Source: Candidatus Vogelbacteria bacterium (GTDB lineage Bacteria > Patescibacteriota > Minisyncoccia > Phycocordibacterales > XYD1-FULL-46-19). From it: DNA of 46,185 bases. Each line of letters starts with the position of its first letter. Position 1 is the first letter of the stretch. Below are positions 31,959 to 43,316 of this stretch, piece after piece. The position numbers and the translations under genes were made by a program. The stretch lies in contig JAIOOX010000005.1 of assembly GCA_021414225.1 (NCBI GenBank), positions 1 through 46,185 on the forward strand, given 5' to 3'. The notes beneath the pieces are model-generated. The model saw only the letters and a list, made by a program, of their open reading frames with translations. It had not been told where the DNA came from and did not search any database.

Positions 31959-32147
31959 ATGACAGAACTCCAGAAAAATCTGGGCGAGCTAGGTCTAACC
32001 CTCAGACCCACTTTGACCAGTGGGCCACGGTCCATCTGTTACGAAGTAGACGGGGTAGATGAGATCGTCGTCATCGACGACGAGGGTTTTCCTTGGGTGG
32101 GGTCTAGACCAGAAGTCAGACTGCCCAAGAGTCTGACCTACGCCTGA
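31959..32147 (+). CDS. 62-aa hypothetical protein encoded by a GC-rich, hairpin-dense segment (coding status uncertain)
   Basis: ATG lies 8 nt after the SD AAGGAGG. The ORF is intact and a strong terminator follows it. Composition is visibly more GC-rich than every neighbouring gene. Confidence 0.5.
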   Translation: MTELQKNLGELGLTLRPTLTSGPRSICYEVDGVDEIVVIDDEGFPWVGSRPEVRLPKSLTYA

Positions 32148-32154
32148 CACAAGA

Positions 32155-32190
32155 GCCCCGGCGCGCGCACGCGCCGGGGCTTTTCTTTTT
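32155..32190 (+). terminator. Strong rho-independent terminator
   Basis: 11-bp GC stem gccccggcgcg/cgcgccggggc (32155-32165 / 32170-32180) with a 4-nt loop, followed by TTTTCTTTTT. Confidence 0.85.
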
Positions 32191-32228: not shown

Positions 32229-33086
32229 ATGAAAAAACCAAATCTTGAGTCTGCTTCTGAAGTCCTACCCTTCTCTATTGAAGATATCTATCCCTTGGCC
32301 CAAGAAAAACTCCAAAGCTACCAAATACGAATGGATAGTTTCTCTGATCTTTATAGCTCAGAGGTAATACTGGCTGACCAAAAAGAAGTGGAAAGACGTA
32401 AAAAAGGATTTGAAATCCATATGACTGACCAAGAAAAAGAACTAAGAAAGCTAGCCGAAGTCTTAGAAGCTATTATTTTATATCACGGAGAACAAAGTAA
32501 TTGGTTTGGTAGTGAAGCAACCCTAACCAGAACAACAGACTACGACGACTTAACCCATGGGACTGACTGTATTATGGAACTAACTAATCCTAATAACACT
32601 TCTCAATTAGCCCTAGCCATTGACGCAACTTTTAGTAGCCACGTTGGAGAAAAATTAATAGAAATATCCAATGAAATAATTAAAGGCGAACTAACTAAAA
32701 TAAAATATTATATTTCTGACCAAGCGGGAATCAGAGGTGAATTAATTAATGTGCCCAGGATTATTGTCGGCTTAGATACTAATTCTATTATGAATATTTC
32801 CGACCTCTGGCTTAATAATGCTAACGAGCACCTAGCTAACCATCCTGCTCAATTTCAGATTTTAGAAGAAATAATGATGCAGTGTGAATTCTTCAGCCGT
32901 TTAGCTATCGCCGAAGATCAGGTAAAAATTGGTGAAATTTACCGAAAAATGTACGAAAAAATTAAAACAATTTATTCAACCAAGAAAGCTGAGGGTAATG
33001 ATAATCACTGGAGGGACAGTTCCCACGCCAACCTAAAACGAGTCTTACCTCAACTGTTCCCCGATATAGCCAAGGAGATGGTTTAG
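32229..33086 (+). CDS. Hypothetical protein (285 aa), no recognisable domain
   Basis: Long AT-rich ORF matching the composition of the left part. TGCTATACT (extended -10-like) ends 10 nt before the ATG. Confidence 0.55.
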   Translation: MKKPNLESASEVLPFSIEDIYPLAQEKLQSYQIRMDSFSDLYSSEVILADQKEVERRKKGFEIHMTDQEKELRKLAEVLEAIILYHGEQSNWFGSEATLTRTTDYDDLTHGTDCIMELTNPNNTSQLALAIDATFSSHVGEKLIEISNEIIKGELTKIKYYISDQAGIRGELINVPRIIVGLDTNSIMNISDLWLNNANEHLANHPAQFQILEEIMMQCEFFSRLAIAEDQVKIGEIYRKMYEKIKTIYSTKKAEGNDNHWRDSSHANLKRVLPQLFPDIAKEMV

Positions 33087-33113
33087 GCAATCAAAGGCAC
33101 ACACCAGGACTCT

Positions 33114-33289
33114 CCCGCGACTTAAGATTTTCTACCGAGTTAATGCCAGAACTCTCGACTACCGTCGCGGGTACTTTTCTGGTTTACTCGCCTATCGGCT
33201 CATAAACAGAGAAAAGTCTTTCTCGTCCTGACGAAAGTGAAGTAGTTCACTTTCTCCATGCGCACAAATTACGCTTCGCTTATTTGTGC
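33114..33289. repeat. Cluster of stem-loops at the compositional junction
   Basis: cccgcgac/gtcgcggg (33114-33121 / 33164-33171). gaaagtgaa/ttcactttc (33233-33241 / 33247-33255, 9 bp perfect). gcacaaat/atttgtgc (33262-33269 / 33282-33289, 8 bp perfect). No ORF >30 codons. Confidence 0.45.
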
Positions 33290-33427: not shown

Positions 33428-35002
33428 CTAGTTTACAGCTTTCTTAATCTGCTTAATTCCCACCTGGTAACCGTACATACTCAGTCGACGGCGTGCATTT
33501 TTCAGACTCACCTTACTGAAAAACGGGATATCTAACGGTTTGTCTGACTCACTAATAATGCCATAGATTACCTCATAGTCCTTCGCATTCGGGGCGGCAG
33601 AGGGATCAGCCAGTTTATGGCCGACCGGTAACTTTACATTCAGCTTCTGGCGGAAATCCGCGTCGCTGACAAAAAGCTCGGCAGAGACGACCCCTTGGGA
33701 AAACAGGTGACTTAATACGTTAGATCCGCCATACCGTTTTATATGTAGGAGTTTATTTTCCCCGGTATAAATGTCACAAAACTCCACACTGCTATGGCCA
33801 CCGCCGTGCATGATTAATTCGCCATCCATACAACAAGCGCCTTTCAAAGCCGCGGCTGCGATGGGTGTGTAGTCACCTTCCCTGGTCACGGTGCATACCG
33901 GCAGGTCAATATCCGATCGCCTGACAGCATCAAAGTGTTCCTGCACCTGCTCGGTGAATCCCTTTGCAATTCGATACCACTTTGCGTTGTTCAGAATGTA
34001 AACATCATCCCGTAACTCAACCTCAGCATACATACACTGAAAAACGGTCCACCGCTCGACAACATCGTCTGTGGCCATGGATATGCGAAATATTGCAGAG
34101 TGCTTAAGTCGCTCCAACGTCACTGGACTGGGTAGCGTCTCCAAGCAAGCTGGTACGTCTAAATCGTCGTGCAAATCGTTGCTCTTTTGACGGGCGTAGC
34201 GAAAGCCTTTTACGTCGGACCACTCAATGACTTCGGGAACAGCCATCCACACTTTGTCTAGTGTCCGAGTATTTAGTTTGTCAACCAGCACAAGATTCAG
34301 TTCTTCTTCGATTTTCTTGTCACGAACTTCGGCAATCTGATCAATCCAATCAAAATCTTTCTTATAGTCTTCGCTCGTATAGCGTTCCAGGCAATGAGTT
34401 AGAAATTCCACGATGTTTCCGACATTAACCTTTGCCGACCCACTTAGTGCATCTTTCCCCGTGATAATGCCCCCGAGAAGAGGGTCACGTGACTTTCCGG
34501 TTACTGAGCTAACCAGGTCTTGCTCAATATCGATTCCGAAATCAGTTGCGGCAACATTCCGGCTCATTTGTTCCTGGCTGTGTTTCGGTACCGATCCTAG
34601 CGTCGTCTTATCGATCTTGCGAAAACTTGCCGCATCAAGTGAATTGAGAACCGTCTTTAAACCGAAACGCTCTTCAAGCACACCGGGCCGTAAGAGGTGT
34701 CGACCAAATCCAAACACCACTGCAAAATACGTCGCCTTCCCGTGTCTCGAAATAGGTACAATCAAAAGCCCCTTCGAGCTGGCGTTTAAGAGGGGCCGGT
34801 CTAGGCTTATAGCATCACCAAAAAAGTCTTTGACCCAGCTCGGAGTTTTGGGAGGCACTGAAGCAGAGACAAAGTGCCCAACTCCATCGATCTCAATCGA
34901 ATTCTTGCTACTCTGGACAATCTCATCCAGTGTTTGGAACTCCGGCTTGATCATGTAGACAGAGTATTTGTTAGTCTTGACTTTTTTCGCATTCATTGAC
35001 AT
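33428..35002 (-). CDS. TIGR04141/DUF6119-like sporadically distributed protein (possible PD-(D/E)xK-type nuclease core)
   Basis: 524 aa. The N-terminal 'YSVYMIK...' opening and the C-terminal block 'VEFCDIYTGENKLLHIKRYGGSNVLSHLFSQG' match my recollection of the family signature (D...hHhK...SHLFxQG). Confidence 0.5.
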   Translation of the reverse strand: MSMNAKKVKTNKYSVYMIKPEFQTLDEIVQSSKNSIEIDGVGHFVSASVPPKTPSWVKDFFGDAISLDRPLLNASSKGLLIVPISRHGKATYFAVVFGFGRHLLRPGVLEERFGLKTVLNSLDAASFRKIDKTTLGSVPKHSQEQMSRNVAATDFGIDIEQDLVSSVTGKSRDPLLGGIITGKDALSGSAKVNVGNIVEFLTHCLERYTSEDYKKDFDWIDQIAEVRDKKIEEELNLVLVDKLNTRTLDKVWMAVPEVIEWSDVKGFRYARQKSNDLHDDLDVPACLETLPSPVTLERLKHSAIFRISMATDDVVERWTVFQCMYAEVELRDDVYILNNAKWYRIAKGFTEQVQEHFDAVRRSDIDLPVCTVTREGDYTPIAAAALKGACCMDGELIMHGGGHSSVEFCDIYTGENKLLHIKRYGGSNVLSHLFSQGVVSAELFVSDADFRQKLNVKLPVGHKLADPSAAPNAKDYEVIYGIISESDKPLDIPFFSKVSLKNARRRLSMYGYQVGIKQIKKAVN

Positions 35003-35198: not shown

Positions 35199-36221
35199 AT
35201 GACCGGTAAGCCTGTGTACTTCGCCTACATCCGCGTCTCCACCCCGCGCCAGGGCGAGCAAGGTTCCTCGCTGGCGGCTCAGCGTCGGAGCATCGAGTAT
35301 TACGCAGCCCGTCACAACATTATGATTTCAGAGTGGATTGAAGAAACAGTAACAGCCGCCAAAGCTGGTCGTCCCCTGTTCACTCAAATGCTGACCCGGC
35401 TCAGAAAAGGCCAAGCTACCGGCGTCATCATCCATAAAATAGATCGGGGTGCCCGCAATCTCAAAGACTGGGCCGCCCTGGGTGAACTCATTGATCATGG
35501 AATAGAAGTGCGGTTCGTCGCTGACTCAGTAGACCTCAGTTCCCGCTCGGGTCGCCTATCGGCAGACATTCAAGCGGTGGTTGCTGCCGACTATGTACGC
35601 AACCTGAAAGAGGAAGCCCGGAAAGGATTCTACGGTCGACTCAACCAAGGGTTGTATCCTTTGGGTGCGCCGTTGGGATACCTCAACAATGGACGGGGCA
35701 AGGTAAAAACCTGGTGCCCGGAGACGGCCCCGCTTGTTCGGCGCGCTTTCGAGCTCTACGCCGCTGGTGAATTCACCCTCCGACAGCTTTCCGCCGAGTG
35801 CTTCAGTCGCGGCTTACGCAACAGTACTGGACATTCCGTTTCCAACAACGCCCTGGCGCGGATACTGCGCAACCGTTTCTATTGCGGCCAGATGGTTCTT
35901 GGAAAAAGCGGTGAGGTTTTCGCAGGCCTGCATGAACCGTTCATCCCGGACGATCTTTTCCGCCGCGTCGGGGCAATCCTAAATGGCCGGATGAGGCGAA
36001 AGGTGAAGTCGCCTTCATTGGTCTACCGCAAGCTTCTCCGCTGCGCCTCTTGCCGTAACCACCTCATCGGCGAGATCAAGAAAGGCCACACCTATTACCG
36101 CTGTCACACGAAGGGCTGCCCGGTAAAGTGTGTCCGCAGCGAAATAATTGACCGGCAGGTCCAGGAAAAGATACAGCGCCTTCAGGCCGATTCAAAGGTC
36201 TACGTCGACAGGCTAAGTTAG
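35199..36221 (+). CDS. Large serine recombinase (resolvase N-domain + recombinase domain + zinc ribbon), apparently C-terminally short
   Basis: 'YIRVSTPRQ' catalytic Ser block, 'IHKIDRGARNLKD', recombinase-domain 'GLYPLGAPLGY' and zinc ribbon 'CASCRNHL...YYRCHTKGCPVKC'. The ORF ends about 45 aa after the ribbon. Confidence 0.85.
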   Translation: MTGKPVYFAYIRVSTPRQGEQGSSLAAQRRSIEYYAARHNIMISEWIEETVTAAKAGRPLFTQMLTRLRKGQATGVIIHKIDRGARNLKDWAALGELIDHGIEVRFVADSVDLSSRSGRLSADIQAVVAADYVRNLKEEARKGFYGRLNQGLYPLGAPLGYLNNGRGKVKTWCPETAPLVRRAFELYAAGEFTLRQLSAECFSRGLRNSTGHSVSNNALARILRNRFYCGQMVLGKSGEVFAGLHEPFIPDDLFRRVGAILNGRMRRKVKSPSLVYRKLLRCASCRNHLIGEIKKGHTYYRCHTKGCPVKCVRSEIIDRQVQEKIQRLQADSKVYVDRLS

Positions 36222-36604: not shown

Positions 36605-38455
36605 CTATTCCAGCAATGGTAGCATTGGAGAAAGAATATGCTCTAATGCGTATAAGGCATTTCCCGTGGCAATTTGCCGGAATTTATCATCTTTTTCGCA
36701 ATCTGCATGGTCACTCACCCCCCGCACTATAAGATAGGCTTGGGGTCTATATCCATAGTGTAGCTGATCTTCGACAAATTGTTGTGCGACACCGCCTGCC
36801 TCAGTTTCAAGAGCCAACGTCTTATCATTTACGCCATTTAGCCACACTCGCTCCTCCGCCTCTCGGTACCTGATCACGGCTTCCCCAGTGCCAATGGGTC
36901 CAAAATGCAATCGAAACTTTGTCGAATCATCATTAGCGTTGGAATTGAGACAACAGATATCACCCGAATTATCAAAGACGGAATTAATAGCGTTTCTCAC
37001 TATAGGATTTAAATTATACGGCAATAATCTATGCTGAGTGCCTTGCTTAGTCACGACGCGTTTATCATAATAAAAAATATCATCTGCCACGACAACGTCA
37101 CCTATGCTCACATCCTTGTGTATAGATCCGGCGATTCCAACTAATACCATAACCTTTGGGGCAAACTCTTCTGCCAGATCACGATACGCTGGCATTATCG
37201 ACCTATTGCCTTGCTCAAGGGCACGCACGGCGGCTACACTAAATGATTCGCCAGCAGGCAACCTTCCAAATCCTTCGGAATACTTTCGCGTCGAACGTGA
37301 GCCAGCGGCTTCTCCAAACCCACCTCTTTCTTTCAACCAATTCCTTACCATATACATTTCATCTGGAACTACAGTTAGAATTCCAACGTCAACCTTTGGT
37401 CGTCTCGGCATTTCATGAACCCTTTTCGTGCTCTTAGGGGATACTTCGAATTGAACTAGATCGATCATATGGGGAACTAGCGCCCCGATAGAATGCCTCT
37501 CGAGCTCAGACGCTCGAAAAATGCGTTTGCCAAGCTCGATACGAACTTCCCGTTCAATGCCCTTGATATCACCGTCTACAGTACCAGATACCAACATCAA
37601 GGCGGTCGCTTTCGCATAACCGAGTTTAGCATCAAGGAATATGCGTGCCCTCTCCCAAAACGTTGGCCCGAGATAGCTTGTTGAACGATCGCTTCTAACT
37701 AACCGGCCATTACTTGGTAGACTTGAAAACAGTACACACCGAACTACAATATCCGAACCAAGCTCTTCAATCGCCTGAATCGCCATTCTGGTAAGCCAAA
37801 CTCGCGCAAGAGGTCCTGTAGCGCAGATCCAAGCGCCATGCGAAACCACCGTCTCTCCTGGAGGAATTTCGGCTATAATTGCCGTGCGTCCGTTTTTTGA
37901 CTGTCTACGGGCTTTCATACGAATCGCATGTAGAATCCCTCGGAGCCTGCTCCAGTTCGCACCCCGTTGAGCATTTGACGTCACCATATCGACACAAAGG
38001 ACGTTCTCGTAATAGGTCAGCTTTTCTGATTTCCCGAAAACGCTTGCAAGTTCATCAACTTCTCCAAGAATATCCCGCATTTCCCCCAAAGATATTCTCA
38101 TTCTTTCTATTAAAAAGGAAAGAAGGGGAATCCAATCTAACGACTGAGTTCTCAGTCTATCATCCAGTCGCAATGCCGCCTTGTGTAGATTCTTATCGAG
38201 CTGTCCATATAACTCAAGCTCTTTAATGCTAGCATGCATTTCGTTATAGGCGCGCTTAGAGTTTTTATCCTCGTTAGGATATAAAAGCCCTATTTCGAGC
38301 ATGGCTAATACCGTCTTTACTTGAAGCAACCATTTCGCTTGGCGCAGTATAATTGATTCCAAGTTTGTCGCTTTAAAATTGAGGTTCTCCCCAACGATAG
38401 TTACCGGAATCTGGATGCAGCTTGCCGGGGTCAATAATTTTGTCGCAATTCGCAT
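36605..38455 (-). CDS. Two-domain protein: unknown ~345-aa N-terminal domain fused to a C-terminal PNP_UDP_1 (purine nucleoside phosphorylase / MTA-SAH nucleosidase-fold) domain. Putative nucleotide-depleting effector.
   Basis: C-terminal ~270 aa: 'VDVGILTVVPDE', phosphate-loop-like 'MVLVGIAGS', 'ALETEAGGVAQ' and 'IVRGVSDHAD' (nucleosidase-type SD motif). The N-terminal part has no motif I recognise. No obvious SD at the ATG. Confidence 0.75.
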   Translation of the reverse strand: MRIATKLLTPASCIQIPVTIVGENLNFKATNLESIILRQAKWLLQVKTVLAMLEIGLLYPNEDKNSKRAYNEMHASIKELELYGQLDKNLHKAALRLDDRLRTQSLDWIPLLSFLIERMRISLGEMRDILGEVDELASVFGKSEKLTYYENVLCVDMVTSNAQRGANWSRLRGILHAIRMKARRQSKNGRTAIIAEIPPGETVVSHGAWICATGPLARVWLTRMAIQAIEELGSDIVVRCVLFSSLPSNGRLVRSDRSTSYLGPTFWERARIFLDAKLGYAKATALMLVSGTVDGDIKGIEREVRIELGKRIFRASELERHSIGALVPHMIDLVQFEVSPKSTKRVHEMPRRPKVDVGILTVVPDEMYMVRNWLKERGGFGEAAGSRSTRKYSEGFGRLPAGESFSVAAVRALEQGNRSIMPAYRDLAEEFAPKVMVLVGIAGSIHKDVSIGDVVVADDIFYYDKRVVTKQGTQHRLLPYNLNPIVRNAINSVFDNSGDICCLNSNANDDSTKFRLHFGPIGTGEAVIRYREAEERVWLNGVNDKTLALETEAGGVAQQFVEDQLHYGYRPQAYLIVRGVSDHADCEKDDKFRQIATGNALYALEHILSPMLPLLE

Positions 38456-38468
38456 CTATGTTTTATTG

Positions 38469-38509
38469 CACAGCTATCCCATCCATTGAATAATGATGGG
38501 ATGGCTGTG
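38469..38509. promoter_or_regulatory. 15-bp inverted repeat (1 mismatch) immediately upstream of the PNP-fusion gene start
   Basis: cacagctatcccatc (38469-38483) / gatgggatggctgtg (38495-38509) with an 11-nt spacer. It ends 13 nt from the ATG at 38455. Confidence 0.5.
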
Positions 38510-38519
38510 ATCTCTATTT

Positions 38520-38554
38520 ATAAAAAATGCTTGAATGACGGATATCACTCAAGC
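38520..38554 (-). terminator. Probable intrinsic terminator after the 68-aa gene
   Basis: Minus strand GCUUGAGUGA-UAUCCG-UCAUUCAAGC (9 bp, 1 mismatch) followed by AUUUUUUAU. Confidence 0.45.
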
Positions 38555-38579
38555 AAAGGTTGCGAATTGCCCAGCGCAA

Positions 38580-38786
38580 TCAAGCAATCTTGTGCCGAAA
38601 TACACGCTGGAATAGCCCTGGAGGGCGCGTAATGCGTCTCTCTACCTGAACCGGAGAAGGTGTACCCGGAGGTGCAACCATCACCAGTGATTCAACTCGA
38701 TGCCCCTGAGCGTTCTCGCTTATGACCTTAAATGTCCGGTCATCGACGCGTTCGCAATGGAGCGACGACTCATCCTTTTTTGTCAT
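38580..38786 (-). CDS. 68-aa hypothetical protein, translationally coupled to the upstream 2TM gene
   Basis: ATG preceded by GGAG at 7 nt. It overlaps the stop region of 38770..39648 by 17 nt. No recognisable domain. Confidence 0.5.
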   Translation of the reverse strand: MTKKDESSLHCERVDDRTFKVISENAQGHRVESLVMVAPPGTPSPVQVERRITRPPGLFQRVFRHKIA

Positions 38787-39648
38787 TGAGATTCTCCTGC
38801 TTGGGATATTTTTTTGACAGCCATTCGTATACCAACGGGTGTAGAGCAGCAGCCAAGCTTCTTACCAATTGAATATCGTAACGTCGATAAAATGCTTTTC
38901 GGGACCGACTATCTACGGCAAGAAATCCGACAATTTTCTCTTTCTCGCCGCTCAAACGCGGCACTATCGGCGACAGGATGACACTTTGGTATGGTAATCT
39001 CCAAGTCATCCGACGCCGCAACGGATTAAGAAACATTGGCCGATCTTCTTTTGGTTTACCATATACCTCGAACGAGGTATTTTCATAATGCGGTCGTCCT
39101 GGCAAGTCGTCTTCGAAAAAGACTTCCATTTCAGGTTGGCCAACATGCTCAAAAATCCAAAGTAATGCACTATTTTTCTGAAGTGAGTGCCTCACTCTAC
39201 CATGTGCGGCATCTCGATCTTTCGAGTGTGTGCTCCGACACAATGTGACAAACTCTAGATCTGAGCTTTCAGCAGTGGGCTGAACAAATTTGACACATGC
39301 TGCACACTGGGTGCCTGTCAAAACAGTGAATGCTTCGGCGATGAGATTTGTAATCGAGGTAATCGGCTCGGAATTTGCCATCGCTTCGGGTGAGGCGTCC
39401 TGTGCATCAAGGAAAGCGGCCGTCAGCATTTGGAGTGATTCCACATACCGTGCTTTTCTCGAGTAACGAAACTGCTGATAGACCATGACGATGAAAAAAA
39501 GAACTGCGAGTAGTCCAAGAAAAAATATGCCAATGCGAGCGTCGGGTTGTGATTTGGCCCAGACAGCTCCAACTGCCACCATGATCGATATTACGGCGCT
39601 CAAGTTGTTGACTATTGGCCCGAACCACCCCCAAAAACGCTGCATCAA
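38770..39648 (-). CDS. Membrane protein: two N-terminal TM helices + cytoplasmic GAF-like domain
   Basis: TM1 'AVISIMVAVGAVWA' and TM2 'IGIFFLGLLAVLFFIVMVY'. The C-terminal ~200 aa have a GAF-like pattern ('ITNLIAEAFTVLTG...', 'KIVGFLAVDSRSRKAFYRRYDIQLVRSLAAAL'). The likely start is the ATG at 39645. Confidence 0.55.
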   Translation of the reverse strand: MMQRFWGWFGPIVNNLSAVISIMVAVGAVWAKSQPDARIGIFFLGLLAVLFFIVMVYQQFRYSRKARYVESLQMLTAAFLDAQDASPEAMANSEPITSITNLIAEAFTVLTGTQCAACVKFVQPTAESSDLEFVTLCRSTHSKDRDAAHGRVRHSLQKNSALLWIFEHVGQPEMEVFFEDDLPGRPHYENTSFEVYGKPKEDRPMFLNPLRRRMTWRLPYQSVILSPIVPRLSGEKEKIVGFLAVDSRSRKAFYRRYDIQLVRSLAAALHPLVYEWLSKKYPKQENLNDKKG

Positions 39649-39696
39649 GGCATCTCCCCGACAAAAATAATGAGTTCGTGTGTCAAAGATCCAATG

Positions 39697-39831
39697 TTAA
39701 TCCCGCGATTCCTCCAACTCTTCGATTTCCGCGTCAAGCTCACATGCTATCGTTTCAATGTCGTCATCGGAGACATTTTGGTCGATTTCGAAGGTTAGAG
39801 GCGTCTTTGACGCATCTGGAACCGTTGCCAT
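39697..39831 (-). CDS. 44-aa highly acidic micro-ORF at the head of the cassette
   Basis: Hand-translated: MATVPDASKTPLTFEIDQNVSDDDIETIACELDAEIEELEESRD. The SD AAAGGAGG lies 6 nt before the ATG. The ORF ends 48 nt before the 2TM gene and is below the ORF-track cutoff. Confidence 0.4.
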   Translation of the reverse strand: MATVPDASKTPLTFEIDQNVSDDDIETIACELDAEIEELEESRD

Positions 39832-41160
39832 GCACGGCCTCCTTTTGCGGAAATCCTGAAGTTAAAACCCTAGAGAATACCATGCGACGCTGTAGAAGTA
39901 AAGAGCCTCCCTTAAGATACATGCTGAGCATGTATGTGCTTTCACTGTGCGCTTTTTAAAGAACAACGATGCAAATGTCAAGTATTTTCCCCTCGTCACT
40001 TTCGCAACTATCCATAAGCCATTGTATCCCAATATCTTATGGACTTCTAGATTGGGATGTGGATAACAATTGCTGCCCTCTTGTGGGTGCTTTTTTGCAC
40101 CCAAGAGAGCGCTTCGGGTGGGGGCGGATTAGTTTGCCGACACTATCTGTAGTGTTTTGCCTGATCGAGCACGAAAAAGAGTAAGAAACAGAAAACTATC
40201 AAAATGCGTCTATGGTAAAACCATTGACAAAGCAACATCTGAAATTATCAAGCCAGGGTGGCCTATGGCCACATTCGCCTTGATTAGGTGCCGCCCACAA
40301 CACAAAATGCCTTCTAGCCCCGATCCATCGCAAGCCCTACACTTACTAATAAGGGGGGTACGCAATGACTCTCAAAAAGCTCGCTATACCCTTATTTTAC
40401 TTACTCCTTTGGGTGTTGTCTTTTGGGCGAGCGGCAAGTGGGCGGAATAATTTCAGTCCGCCTTTTGGGGCACAACGCTCCGCCGAGCGGCGCGGCAGCG
40501 CCTGAAAAAGCAGGCCATCCTTTTGGGACAGGAGCATTACCGCAACGAAACCGCAATCCAGCCCATACTGATCCGCTTGCCCCTGGGGTATGGAGACAAT
40601 TCCAATGTCCCCGGTTGAGGCATAGACGAAACAATCGTCATGCCTTGGAAAGTTCTGTGAACCAGTTGGACCCAGTACCGGAATTTCTTCTCGCAGTATG
40701 GTGGTCTTTGCCGTCTTGTCGATGAGATCCCCTCCTCGTCGGCCTCGGGGTGCTCACTCGGCCTTCCGTTTGTCGTACTGATCCCAGCCGTTGGCTTTTC
40801 CGCCATGCATCTGCCGCCACAAAAGGCTGAAGGAGAACAGCGACACAGGATGCGTGGATGAATCTCAAATTTGAAGCGGACTTAACGATGAGAAGTTCAA
40901 TGAGATGCTCTAATCCCGGCCATTCCCTTTGCAGAACCAGCAATGCGGTGTTTGAAGCCAGCTCAGCTTTAAACTTGCCGGCCCGTTGTTCGCGCACTTG
41001 CAGTTGCCATTGCGCTTGGACGCCATCAATCGAAGTACGGGGCAGCGTTTGAAAATGCTCCAGTACACGGTCGTGAAGACATCGAAAGGGAGAAGAAAAT
41101 AGCCCATGAACTCCAATTTCCGCGTAGGAAATTAGCGTAACCAAATTCTCTCCGCCCTCA

Positions 41161-41247
41161 TCATGTACAGAGGGCAACAACCGGCTCGCTGGCAAAATCG
41201 GCTTCCGAATAGGTCTCGATAGTCGGCATTTCGTATGGGTTCTTCAT
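41161..41247 (-). CDS. 28-aa candidate RiPP precursor peptide
   Basis: Hand-translated: MKNPYEMPTIETYSEADFASEPVVALCT. The SD GGAGGA lies 7 nt before the ATG, and the ORF has its own near-consensus promoter. It sits directly downstream of the PqqD-like gene. Confidence 0.55.
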   Translation of the reverse strand: MKNPYEMPTIETYSEADFASEPVVALCT

Positions 41248-41376: not shown

Positions 41377-41661
41377 CTATTCTAAGCCGCGCATGCAAAC
41401 GCCCAAGCTGTAGAGTTTTTCGAGTGTAACTTGGATGTCCAACTCTAAACGCTCGCGTGGAACCTGCCCGTATCGCTGAAGCATCTGCTCCAACAAGTCC
41501 TCGACAGTTGTCATCCCATCACATTTCTGCCAAATGAAAAAGGCAGAGTCGTTCAAAACGTGCACTAGACCTCCGGCGGCATCGTACAAGGCCCCATCCT
41601 CACCAAATTCATGAACACTCACGTCCGCTCTTCGTCTAGGTAGTCGTTTGGGCTGAAGCAT
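41377..41661 (-). CDS. PqqD-family protein (stand-alone RiPP recognition element)
   Basis: 'VHVLNDSAFFIWQKCDGMTTVEDLLEQMLQRYGQVPRERLELDIQVTLEKLYSLGV' follows the PqqD pattern (LN.ta..iW..cDG..tv.el...l...y.v......D....l..L...g). The ATG at 41661 has the SD GGAGAGG. The ORF track extends to GTG 41676. Confidence 0.75.
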   Translation of the reverse strand: MLQPKRLPRRRADVSVHEFGEDGALYDAAGGLVHVLNDSAFFIWQKCDGMTTVEDLLEQMLQRYGQVPRERLELDIQVTLEKLYSLGVCMRGLE

Positions 41662-41715
41662 CTGTATCCTCTCCACTCAACTTCATGTGTCAACGCAAGA
41701 CATTATGCGTGGCAT

Positions 41716-42051
41716 TTAGCGAGCGGCCATAATGCCAAGGATATCGCGATAAAGACAAATACCAGGCCAGCGATTAGCATCCCCTTTTTCGACACATACG
41801 GGGCCAAAACGCAAGATGAAGCGATGTAGCACTCTCGCACAGCCGCGACGAAAACAGATGACCTCTCCGAACTTGGGCTTCGGATCGAGCGCATAGCGAA
41901 TTTCTACCTCTGAGCCTGGGGGAAGTGTTGGCGACATGCTTCGACCAGTAACCCGCTTCAGCATTGTCTTACGGTCATGTCGCCAGGCTTCTTCGACTGC
42001 CCGTCGAGCTTTGTCGTGATCTCTGGCTGGCAAAGGCACACTATGCTCCAT
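41716..42051 (-). CDS. Soluble S24/S26-family (signal-peptidase/LexA-fold) serine peptidase-like protein
   Basis: 'VTGRSMSPTLPPGSEVEI' (Ser nucleophile box), then 'GEVICFRRG...VLHRFI'. There is no N-terminal TM anchor, unlike true signal peptidases. Confidence 0.6.
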   Translation of the reverse strand: MEHSVPLPARDHDKARRAVEEAWRHDRKTMLKRVTGRSMSPTLPPGSEVEIRYALDPKPKFGEVICFRRGCARVLHRFILRFGPVCVEKGDANRWPGICLYRDILGIMAAR

Positions 42052-42158
42052 CTGGATATTCTATCATCCCTGTAGACATTGGTGAAAAGGCCCAGTTACC
42101 GTGGAACCGCCGAAGAAAGAGATCGGAATGCCAGTGCAATTGCAAACGAAACAAAAAA

Positions 42159-43316
42159 CTACTCATGATATTGCGCCCAAATACTAGACATGTCAATTAG
42201 TCTGTATTCCCCGTCTGGCGCTGGAATCATCTCATGGGCAACAGCAAGGCTCATCTCCGCCGGAAACATCAAGACACTCTGAATCGTGTGATGGTTGCAT
42301 ATACAATTATAGCTCTTCCCATTCTCGCGGCCTGTCGCTCCGTCGTATTTGTCACGCAGAAATCGAAGCGCGGCCTCCGCGCACAGCGCTCCTCGATGTT
42401 CCTCTATCAAGGTGCGCATTCGCGCGTATCGAAAGGTTCCTGCTGAATAGGTAAGTCTATTTCGCGCAGTCTGTGGGCACTGGCAACAATCGTCAACAAT
42501 GAGCGTCCCTCTCCGCGCCGACCTCCAGGCACACAAACTTCGGGTGAACTCAATCGCACCGGCCTCCCCGCTCTTTCCGTCAGCGAGCGCAAGATTATAC
42601 CCACAGGTACGGGGCACATTCTTGACTATTTCCAAAGCATCGGCGAGGTTTCGTGCCTTTTCCAGGACCATTCGAAGCACAATCGAAATCGGTACCCCCT
42701 CAATGTCGCAATCGCTCGCCGGGGTGCTGACTTCAGAGAGCGAAAGCCTAGCAGCACTCATTCCCGTGTACGTCCCAACCATCCCCACAATTGTCGGCGA
42801 TATTGTTGGAAGCAGCGTCTCCGAAGCCGGACTCCGAGCTATGCAAATGCCCACCCTTGCATGGATGTCGCGACCCAACGGAAAATCAAGGTTTCTTCCG
42901 TGTATAAGCCGACCTCTAGTAACGCTTGGAAGTAACACAAAATTGCAACATTGATGCAAGGCTCCCATGTAACAGCCATCGACATCCGCGATGCAGTTCA
43001 GCGCAAGAATGTCGGCATACGGGACCTCGCATCCCTCGGCAATGGCACGCATCTCTTCCAGGTACATCGACGGTATGAAATTCGCGCATCTGGCTGATTG
43101 CTCAAGGAGGAAATGATAAGGAACCCCGAATATCTCGTTACTTCGTCGCACAAAACCATCCACTAGGAGCCCGATCTCATTCTTCAGCAAGCGGCCATGC
43201 TCGTGCCCCATTTCTTCTGGTGTTCCCTCAAGCAGAAGGATCGGTATAGATTCTATTAATTCTAGCGGCACGGAAACGACCACTCCTGCAACAGTGTTCG
43301 GAACACCGGAACTCAA
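42159..43316 (-). CDS. Peptidase C45 / acyl-CoA:6-APA acyltransferase-family Ntn hydrolase
   Basis: 'EGTPEEMGHEHGRLL' N-terminal block, candidate nucleophile 'QCCNFVL' and 'HGRNLDFP'. The start codon is uncertain (the track uses TTG). Confidence 0.65.
   Translation of the reverse strand: MSSGVPNTVAGVVVSVPLELIESIPILLLEGTPEEMGHEHGRLLKNEIGLLVDGFVRRSNEIFGVPYHFLLEQSARCANFIPSMYLEEMRAIAEGCEVPYADILALNCIADVDGCYMGALHQCCNFVLLPSVTRGRLIHGRNLDFPLGRDIHARVGICIARSPASETLLPTISPTIVGMVGTYTGMSAARLSLSEVSTPASDCDIEGVPISIVLRMVLEKARNLADALEIVKNVPRTCGYNLALADGKSGEAGAIEFTRSLCAWRSARRGTLIVDDCCQCPQTARNRLTYSAGTFRYARMRTLIEEHRGALCAEAALRFLRDKYDGATGRENGKSYNCICNHHTIQSVLMFPAEMSLAVAHEMIPAPDGEYRLIDMSSIWAQYHE

Follow-up and report, generated by a model that had tools for sequence, protein, structure and literature searches.

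A candidate abortive-infection nucleosidase with an undescribed N-terminal domain, and a probably separate two-gene membrane module, in a contig of Candidatus Vogelbacteria

ATP nucleosidases of the PNP fold, which split ATP and dATP into adenine and ribose-5'-triphosphate, are an established class of immune effector that extends from bacteria to fungi and sponges, and there are bacterial Avs proteins with a PNP domain at their N-terminus. Two bacterial members of the class, Cap17 of type III CBASS and DtcC of Detocs, cut ATP and dATP at the N-glycosidic bond; D353 of DtcC is essential, and D472 of Cap17 is the equivalent catalytic Asp (Rousset et al., doi 10.1101/2023.01.24.525353). According to the same study the Cap17 clade of PNP domains is enriched near defence systems, which the clades of MtnN, DeoD, Udp, XapA and MqnB are not, and a Cap17-clade PNP in a protein of no known function predicts immune activity (doi 10.1101/2023.01.24.525353). 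Here we analyse a 46,185-nt contig of a Candidatus Vogelbacteria bacterium (JAIOOX010000005.1, assembly GCA_021414225.1; the whole stretch is henceforth called the window). One of its genes encodes a 616-amino-acid (aa) protein that, as an earlier note on this DNA had recognised, fuses a domain without Pfam match to a PNP/MTAN-fold nucleosidase; next to it stands a gene pair for a 292-aa membrane protein and a 68-aa product. The note proposed that these genes, together with a 44-aa open reading frame (ORF), form one undescribed anti-phage cassette.

Our analysis favours a different reading, to which we assign a probability of roughly 60%: the stretch, which bears a recombinase, contains two adjacent but independent units, one being the 616-aa gene, a candidate abortive-infection gene, and the other the 292/68 pair, a mobile unit. 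We separate the two because they do not co-occur in either direction and because a terminator-like hairpin stands between the 68-aa ORF and the 616-aa gene. The features concerned, with positions in the window, are as follows.

36605..38455, minus strand: gene for the 616-aa protein, N-domain followed by PNP nucleosidase (an ORF; its product can be aligned over its full length with the last ~620 aa of a family of large proteins)
36605..37408, minus strand: PNP/MTAN-fold nucleosidase domain, residues ~350-616 (Pfam PF01048, PADLOC, Foldseek)
37436..38368, minus strand: N-domain, residues ~30-340 (secondary structure and pLDDT of an AlphaFold2 model, alignment columns)
38469..38509, minus strand: 15-bp inverted repeat (hairpin), 14 nt 5′ of the start codon of the 616-aa gene
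38528..38555, minus strand: terminator-like hairpin with a T-run, 3′ of the 68-aa ORF
38580..38786, minus strand: 68-aa ORF, translationally coupled to the 292-aa gene (an ORF whose position is kept across 292-family loci)
38770..39648, minus strand: gene for the 292-aa protein, two transmembrane segments and a conserved ~225-aa cytoplasmic domain (homologues, hydropathy)
39697..39831, minus strand: 44-aa very acidic ORF with a strong Shine-Dalgarno (SD) sequence, of uncertain status (ORF and SD)

The 616-aa protein has in common with DtcC and Cap17 (doi 10.1101/2023.01.24.525353) a C-terminal PNP_UDP_1/MTAN-fold domain and the fusion of a sensor or regulatory region to this effector, and its catalytic Asp lies in the same motif as that of DtcC (window ...GVSDHADCEKDDKF, DtcC ...AVVDMGDSSKGDKF). 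However, the PNP domain of DtcC is only ~23% identical to that of the window, and the N-terminal region of the window protein, a helical bundle with an alpha/beta domain, is unrelated to the corresponding parts of either protein. Searches with Pfam and PADLOC also failed to find the partners of the two systems: the histidine kinase DtcA, the buffer receiver DtcB and the receiver on the PNP protein of Detocs are missing here, and neither the 616-aa protein nor the neighbouring ORFs scanned contain the CD-NTase or the TPALS/SAVED of CBASS with Cap17. The earlier note was thus right to report no cyclase, SAVED, kinase or receiver among the partners, and because these defining partners were tested for and are absent, we do not regard the 616-aa gene as a member of CBASS or Detocs.

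Other described proteins resemble it in part. The closest validated relative is fungal NLRN, a validated ATP nucleosidase of the NLR type that likewise holds effector and sensor in a single protein; in NLR-type proteins, however, the PNP domain is N-terminal rather than C-terminal, and their STAND/NACHT NTPase with its Walker A motif is absent from every member of the N-domain::PNP family, which has no repeats either. The best PADLOC match is component C of PDC-M60, itself an unvalidated candidate, over profile positions 193-394 of 407, that is, over the PNP part only; the neighbouring ORFs match no other PADLOC model. E. coli MtnN shares the fold (Foldseek E = 1e-15, with a target-normalised TM-score of 0.77-0.79) and the catalytic Glu/Glu/Asp positions, but is ~18% identical to the window PNP, lacks the segment ‘K-x-D-[KDR]-[WF]’ discussed below, carries no N-terminal fusion and belongs to a housekeeping context. 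The large proteins of ~1,315-1,405 aa (e.g. L009-L014, P0009-P0034) are homologous to the window protein over its whole 616 aa, and these possess in addition an N-terminal part of ~740 aa, with a phosphoribosyltransferase (PRTase)-like phosphoribosyl pyrophosphate (PRPP) loop and a middle region, that the window protein lacks. Fusion of immune PNP domains to varied sensors is already known as a principle; what is undescribed is this particular N-domain, the large forms with their PRTase-like domain, and the 292/68 pair.

Had the four co-directional genes formed one defence system, as the earlier note envisaged, a membrane-anchored GAF-like protein and micro-proteins would sense infection and control the PNP fusion. 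The layout itself is as the note described it: the four ORFs lie closely spaced on the minus strand, the two reading frames of the pair overlap by 17 nt, the terminator-like hairpin and the inverted repeat are both present, and a serine recombinase is adjacent. The absence of the usual PNP partners and weak GAF- and SLATT-like hints in one homologue of the 292-aa protein (P0007) would also suit such a system. Distribution argues otherwise. Neither BLAST nor a hidden Markov model (HMM) of the 292 family detected any homologue of the 292-, 68- or 44-aa products in 87 loci with PNP relatives (1.6 Mb), and no PNP gene lies near the 292-family gene at the four other places where that gene was found. 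Relatives of the N-domain::PNP protein have no conserved neighbour, the 44-aa ORF is not conserved, and a second hairpin adds to the terminator-like one in separating the pair from the 616-aa gene. Lack of co-occurrence is what the earlier note itself had named as a refutation of its cassette, and we hold a four-gene system to be highly improbable.

The nature of the C-terminal domain is evident from several searches. Residues ~350-616 match PF01048 (PNP_UDP_1; E = 3.2e-14, 53.3 bits against a cut-off of 25.1) as well as the PADLOC models for PDC-M60C (3.1e-18) and the CBASS ‘PN-superfamily’ effector (1.6e-14), and the motifs LVGIAGS, ETEAGG and RGVSDHAD, picked out in the earlier note, are present. 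The structural model matches MTAN structures in Foldseek at E = 1e-15, with a TM-score normalised to target of 0.77 and up to 0.80. The catalytic residues E366, E552 and D582 are invariant in 15 family members and align with those of DtcC, NLRN, DDAN and MtnN, D582 falling opposite D353 of DtcC.

The domain was compared with two small sets of reference enzymes: the experimentally validated PNP domains of DtcC, NLRN and DDAN, taken from Table S8 of the published survey (doi 10.1101/2023.01.24.525353), and the housekeeping enzymes MtnN, DeoD, Amn and Udp of E. coli (NC_000913.3). With BLASTP the window PNP domain scores 41.6 bits over 187 aa against DtcC and 41.6 bits over 212 aa against DDAN, compared with 32.7 bits over 51 aa against MtnN. 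The family HMM ranks the references in the order NLRN (65.8 bits), DDAN (44.5), DtcC (41.8), MtnN (38.4), DeoD (11.0), Amn (6.9) and Udp (5.6), and the bootstrapped neighbour-joining tree places the family together with NLRN (100%), with DDAN and DtcC as the next to join (69%) and MtnN outside (80%). The segment that follows the catalytic Asp reads K-x-D-[KDR]-[WF] in the family, without the insertion of MtnN, and is common to DtcC and DDAN; NLRN has Lys at the Asp position, and the aromatic residue is absent from a few family members, namely the actinomycete PNPs found here and P0026. Table S4 of the survey, which covers the Cap17 clade (doi 10.1101/2023.01.24.525353), lists genes from four strains that carry ~33-38%-identical actinomycete PNPs, a correspondence at the level of the strain only. 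All lines of this small-sample test agree: judged from sequence, the PNP domain looks more like the immune effectors than like the housekeeping enzymes, and on BLASTP, family HMM and tree the earlier note's suggestion to that effect is borne out.

It could be argued that the protein is nevertheless a metabolic or salvage nucleosidase, similar to MtnN, futalosine hydrolase or AMP nucleosidase, with a regulatory domain attached. Its best matches among solved structures are MTANs, it is weakly recognised by the NCBIfam models for MtnN and futalosine hydrolase, and the PRTase-like domain of its large relatives suggests nucleotide metabolism. Those NCBIfam scores, however, are far under the equivalog cut-offs (MtnN NF004079, 54.7 against 169; futalosine hydrolase TIGR03664, 23 against 124.7), and the domain groups with validated ATP nucleosidases. 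The family is also very sporadic, with 28 other representatives among 1.84 billion protein clusters and six loci in 185,579 genomes, one per species. Moreover, several unrelated N-terminal regions are found fused to PNP domains of this subclade, a modularity typical of immune effectors, and neighbourhoods vary, with restriction-modification and GmrSD genes among them. P0003, for example, whose PNP domain is 48% identical to that of the window and whose N-terminal region is unrelated, lies within an integrase island that also encodes GmrSD, a kinase, an HD protein and a type I restriction-modification system. A QueC-like::REase protein comes before L009, L014 is situated between a Dam methylase and a fragment of a type I R-subunit, and P0026 (L095) adjoins a protein kinase and an SMC-like ATPase. 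A metabolic role appears to us distinctly unlikely.

Two arrangements of PNP genes were also noted. At L001 (8705-12534; also in L002 and L003) a tight four-gene operon encodes an HD_3 phosphohydrolase, an AAA_18 kinase-like protein, a 649-aa protein and a 195-aa unknown; the 649-aa protein joins another N-terminal region to a PNP domain of the same subclade (48% identity), in an integrase island with GmrSD and type I restriction-modification genes. This operon may be a distinct PNP-based candidate system. The second arrangement comes from the Actinomycetota, dozens of whose loci carry a PNP relative (L017-L088). Several of the eight loci inspected (e.g. L026 8202-10756, L046 8106-10789, L057 8168-10554) contain a two-gene operon, in which a protein of ~555-685 aa, with no match in Pfam, PADLOC or NCBIfam, is followed at once by a standalone PNP of ~300 aa that is ~38% identical to the window PNP. 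The published Cap17-clade list includes genes from the same strains and assigns them no defensive context.

The earlier note had found nothing that resembled the N-terminal ~345 aa, a statement that does not survive deeper searching. When residues 1-350 were compared by HMMER with all of the 1.84 billion cluster representatives, 28 other proteins were returned, of which 18 have E <= 1e-10. Almost all are 1,259-1,405 aa long, the matched segment lying at about residues 730-1,070, and from the start of the N-domain to the C-terminus they measure 565-641 aa, one fragment excepted. PNP_UDP_1 stands at the C-terminal end in each of the nine relatives scanned, and a 15-sequence alignment (A1) is collinear over window residues ~30-616. 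A word-indexed protein search with A1 gave the same four proteins and nothing further, and a viral scan for the PNP family gave no matches. A literature search found no description of the family, nor of any PRTase-PNP defence protein. The N-domain belongs to an existing family that appears to be undescribed, as does the occurrence of PRTase and PNP domains in a single protein of ~1,350 aa.

With A1 as input, AlphaFold2 models the 616-aa protein at a pLDDT of 81.4 and a pTM of 0.70 (the single-sequence model, at a pLDDT of 32, is unusable). The predicted order is a set of long helices (residues 30-137), an alpha/beta part (146-338) and, last, the PNP domain. Across the 15 aligned sequences only G141 and L246 of the N-domain are invariant; L130, G214, L221, A225, F266 and W267 are nearly so, as is a motif W-[IV]-C-A-S-G..AR.WL.RLA. 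None of the invariant residues is polar, and the N-domain for this reason most likely serves for regulation, sensing or oligomerisation rather than catalysis. It has no match in Pfam, and a profile search of PDB sequences gave weak matches only, at E 0.036 or worse. Foldseek with the whole 616-aa model listed only MTANs and futalosine hydrolases among its best 50 PDB matches, and against BFVD the significant matches were PNP proteins only. Comparison by hhalign ruled out remote homology with the N-domain for two candidates: the ~560-aa protein that accompanies the standalone actinomycete PNPs, and the N-terminal region of P0003.

The large relatives belong to a sporadic family of proteins of ~1,315-1,405 aa, with the C-terminal ~620 aa of which the N-domain and PNP domain of the window align end to end at ~34-36% identity. 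The scan of species genomes placed the combination at six loci (L009-L014), each in a different genome or metagenome-assembled genome, the hosts being Syntrophorhabdaceae, Ferruginibacter, Saprospiraceae, Paraflavitalea, Cyclobacteriaceae and Verrucomicrobia; five are genes of 1,315-1,376 aa and the remaining one ends at a contig edge. The N-termini of the large forms show a weak but consistent match to the PRPP loop of PRTases at residues ~65-127. This PRTase-like domain is followed by a strongly conserved middle region of no known kind, then by the N-domain and the PNP domain. The middle region is rich in invariant polar residues (D472, D476, R493, R496, H497 and E499 in the numbering of P0011). 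All-against-all BLAST of the neighbours at the six loci identified no conserved partner; the large protein alone is common to them.

Standalone short forms occur elsewhere, too. P0021 (637 aa), P0026 (634 aa) and P0035 (661 aa) are all called in the interior of their contigs; upstream of P0035 lies a gene fragment, which bears no relation to the N-terminus of the large forms. The possibility that the window contains a split gene, its upstream ORFs being the missing N-terminal half, was rejected: tblastn and HMM searches in all six frames of the window found nothing of the N-terminal ~740 aa. Since no trace of this part is present, the 616-aa protein is a short-form member and not half of a split gene; its gene is a standalone short form of a sporadic single-gene family.

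A related proposal is decay: the 616-aa gene would be what remains of a ~1,350-aa gene that lost its PRTase-containing half and with it function or regulation. The absence of the ~740 aa would fit this, as would the replacement of a conserved segment ahead of the helical bundle by 29 unrelated residues of low model confidence, and the lack of an SD sequence together with an in-frame stop codon immediately 5′ of the ATG. Decay is, however, difficult to reconcile with an intact ORF of 616 codons in which the catalytic and the nearly invariant residues are all kept; the low identity to the large forms implies that no recent truncation took place, and P0021, P0026 and P0035 are independent short forms. 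We consider a decayed remnant unlikely.

The 616-aa gene has an unusually structured leader. Between the stop codon of the 68-aa ORF and the start of the 616-aa gene lie two hairpins, the terminator-like one at 38555-38528 and the inverted repeat at 38469-38483 / 38495-38509; for inverted repeats of 15 bp there are 2 matches against 0.08 expected by chance. The 146-nt spacer (38440-38585, minus strand) folds at -54.4 kcal/mol, compared with -31.6 +/- 3.4 for shuffled sequences (z = -6.7), and a 10-bp outer helix closes it, 38570-38561 being paired with the final base of the start codon and the three codons after it. Such a leader, strongly folded, paired with the first codons and lacking an SD sequence, would probably keep basal expression low, and may hold back the translation of a toxic effector.

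The 292/68 pair has a distribution of its own. The 292-aa protein contains hydrophobic segments near its N-terminus (residues ~8-31 and 35-61), and the 68-aa ORF that overlaps its gene has AGGAG 8 nt upstream. Relatives are very rare: a word-indexed search of 5.8 billion clusters found two, a viral scan contributed L097, a plasmid search added a distant homologue in Azospirillum, and a metagenome scan with the 292-family alignment produced fragments of L004 only, and nothing new. P0006, P0007 and L097 are 32-35% identical to the window protein. The four other places of the gene are the metagenome loci L004 and L005/L006, the viral contig L097 and an Azospirillum islet, L098. In each of the four an ORF of 54-85 aa overlaps or abuts the 3′ end of the 292-family gene; these small ORFs are weakly similar in sequence, and what is conserved is their position.

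The surroundings differ from place to place. In L004 the gene is flanked by an HTH_17 gene and a HEPN-like gene, and in L005 an era gene comes after the pair. In L097 (1049-6257), on a contig predicted to be viral in IMG/VR, the pair is directly upstream of genes that, by eye from their translations, resemble those for portal and for protease/capsid, which suggests that the pair travels as phage cargo. On plasmid p1 of Azospirillum argentinense (NZ_CP032322.1; L098, 4700-6200) a distant homologue of 331 aa and an 85-aa downstream ORF make up an islet of ~1.5 kb with a GC content of 0.44-0.51, in a replicon of ~0.70, between a PAS-GGDEF-EAL gene and recO (flanks identified by eye). This looks like a clean horizontal insertion of the pair alone. 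We conclude that the 292- and 68-aa genes are a separate mobile two-gene membrane module of unknown function. That the module acts at the membrane as a toxin, in exclusion or in abortive infection is weakly supported.

Two further claims of the earlier note concern this end of the locus. Two transmembrane segments in the 292-aa protein were confirmed, and the GAF-like domain proved to be a faint signal: no GAF or SLATT match was obtained with the window protein, and P0007 gives matches below threshold to GAF (E = 0.003, 18.4 bits against a cut-off of 22.4) and SLATT_5 (E = 0.008, 15.9 against 29.5; E = 0.034 with the NCBIfam SLATT_5 model). The 44-aa ORF is as acidic as had been claimed (15 Asp and Glu against 2 Lys and Arg), with AGGAGG 6 nt 5′ of its ATG; it has no match in Pfam, PADLOC or NCBIfam and no counterpart upstream of other 292-family genes, and as a gene it is unsupported by conservation.

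If the 616-aa gene is indeed an abortive-infection gene, the N-domain would hold the nucleosidase inactive until an infection cue released it; the freed enzyme would then remove adenine from ATP, dATP or a related nucleotide, and growth would stop before the phage matures. Several points weigh against our reading of the locus as two units of which one is such a gene. Substrate, trigger and phenotype go beyond what was observed, namely the architecture, the homology, the catalytic residues, the grouping with validated ATP nucleosidases and the lack of co-occurrence of the units, and for substrate and trigger we argue by analogy. The clade test is small (three validated immune PNPs and four E. 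coli enzymes, by neighbour-joining), Cap17, XapA and MqnB were left out of its tree, and the node that joins all immune PNPs has a support of only 69%. Defence neighbours are anecdotal, being seen at three or four loci without statistics, and the remaining loci, L010-L012 among them, have uninformative neighbours. The fold of the N-domain was searched only within the whole 616-aa model, so that it may be a known sensor fold. The segment ‘D.IY..W..FWP..G.Q’, which in the relatives stands N-terminal to the helical bundle, is absent from the window protein, whose residues 1-29 are disordered in the model, and the protein could be a decayed derivative. Lastly, the sequence is compatible with a local co-option of the neighbouring pair, which may have taken place.

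A more far-reaching proposal is that the window holds two undescribed elements: an N-domain::ATP-nucleosidase with a new infection sensor, which would be the minimal core of a single-gene defence family of ~1,350-aa PRTase proteins, and a new, very rare, horizontally mobile and also phage-carried membrane exclusion or abortive-infection system composed of a protein with two transmembrane segments and a GAF-like domain and a micro-protein. This we put forward tentatively, as a possibility against which the odds still lie. The locus in any case points to an uncharacterised family that couples an immune effector to a new N-terminal domain and, in most members, to a PRTase-like domain as well. Its 616-aa short form would be the smallest version found in nature, and would lend itself to finding the switch of the effector. 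Recognising the neighbouring module as separate avoids a false annotation as a ‘four-gene system’, and the 292-aa protein with its micro-ORF is a second candidate in its own right, a very rare mobile unit seen both in phage and in a low-GC islet.

Beyond the 616-aa gene lie the two context genes named in the earlier note.

35199..36221, plus strand: serine recombinase, convergent with the 616-aa gene (Resolvase, Recombinase and Zn_ribbon_recom domains)
33428..35002, minus strand: TIGR04141/DUF6119 protein (family-model match; no match in PADLOC)

No functional papers on TIGR04141/DUF6119 were found in a literature search. A Dam fragment, which the earlier note placed in the same island, was not recovered, tblastn of the window with one D12-class methylase (a limited test) giving nothing. 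On the other side of the locus a 185-aa ORF at 40638-41195 has no match in Pfam, PADLOC, NCBIfam or PDB.

The GC content of the window changes abruptly, from ~0.36 over 1-33.0 kb, which includes Mur ligases and a racemase, to ~0.49 over 33.1-46.2 kb. The jump, at 33000-33200, falls right after the stop codon of a 285-aa ORF (33086). Neither a tRNA nor an Rfam gene was found at this junction: a tRNA search of the window was negative, an Rfam scan of the whole window at the gathering threshold returned nothing, and a scan of the junction at permissive E gave no score above gathering. The junction marks either the boundary of a large foreign island or a chimeric join in the assembly.

Two smaller features of the window may be added. 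Within its AT-rich part a GC-rich (0.57) ORF of 62 codons at 31960-32190 is preceded by an SD sequence and promoter-like hexamers and has a strong GC hairpin with a T-run, a terminator at ~32157-32190. On the minus strand at 41377-43316 are genes for a PqqD-like protein (99 aa), a weakly S24-peptidase-like protein (111 aa) and a member of the AAT/acyltransferase family (385 aa), which may constitute a small peptide-maturation cluster unrelated to the 616-aa and 292-aa loci.

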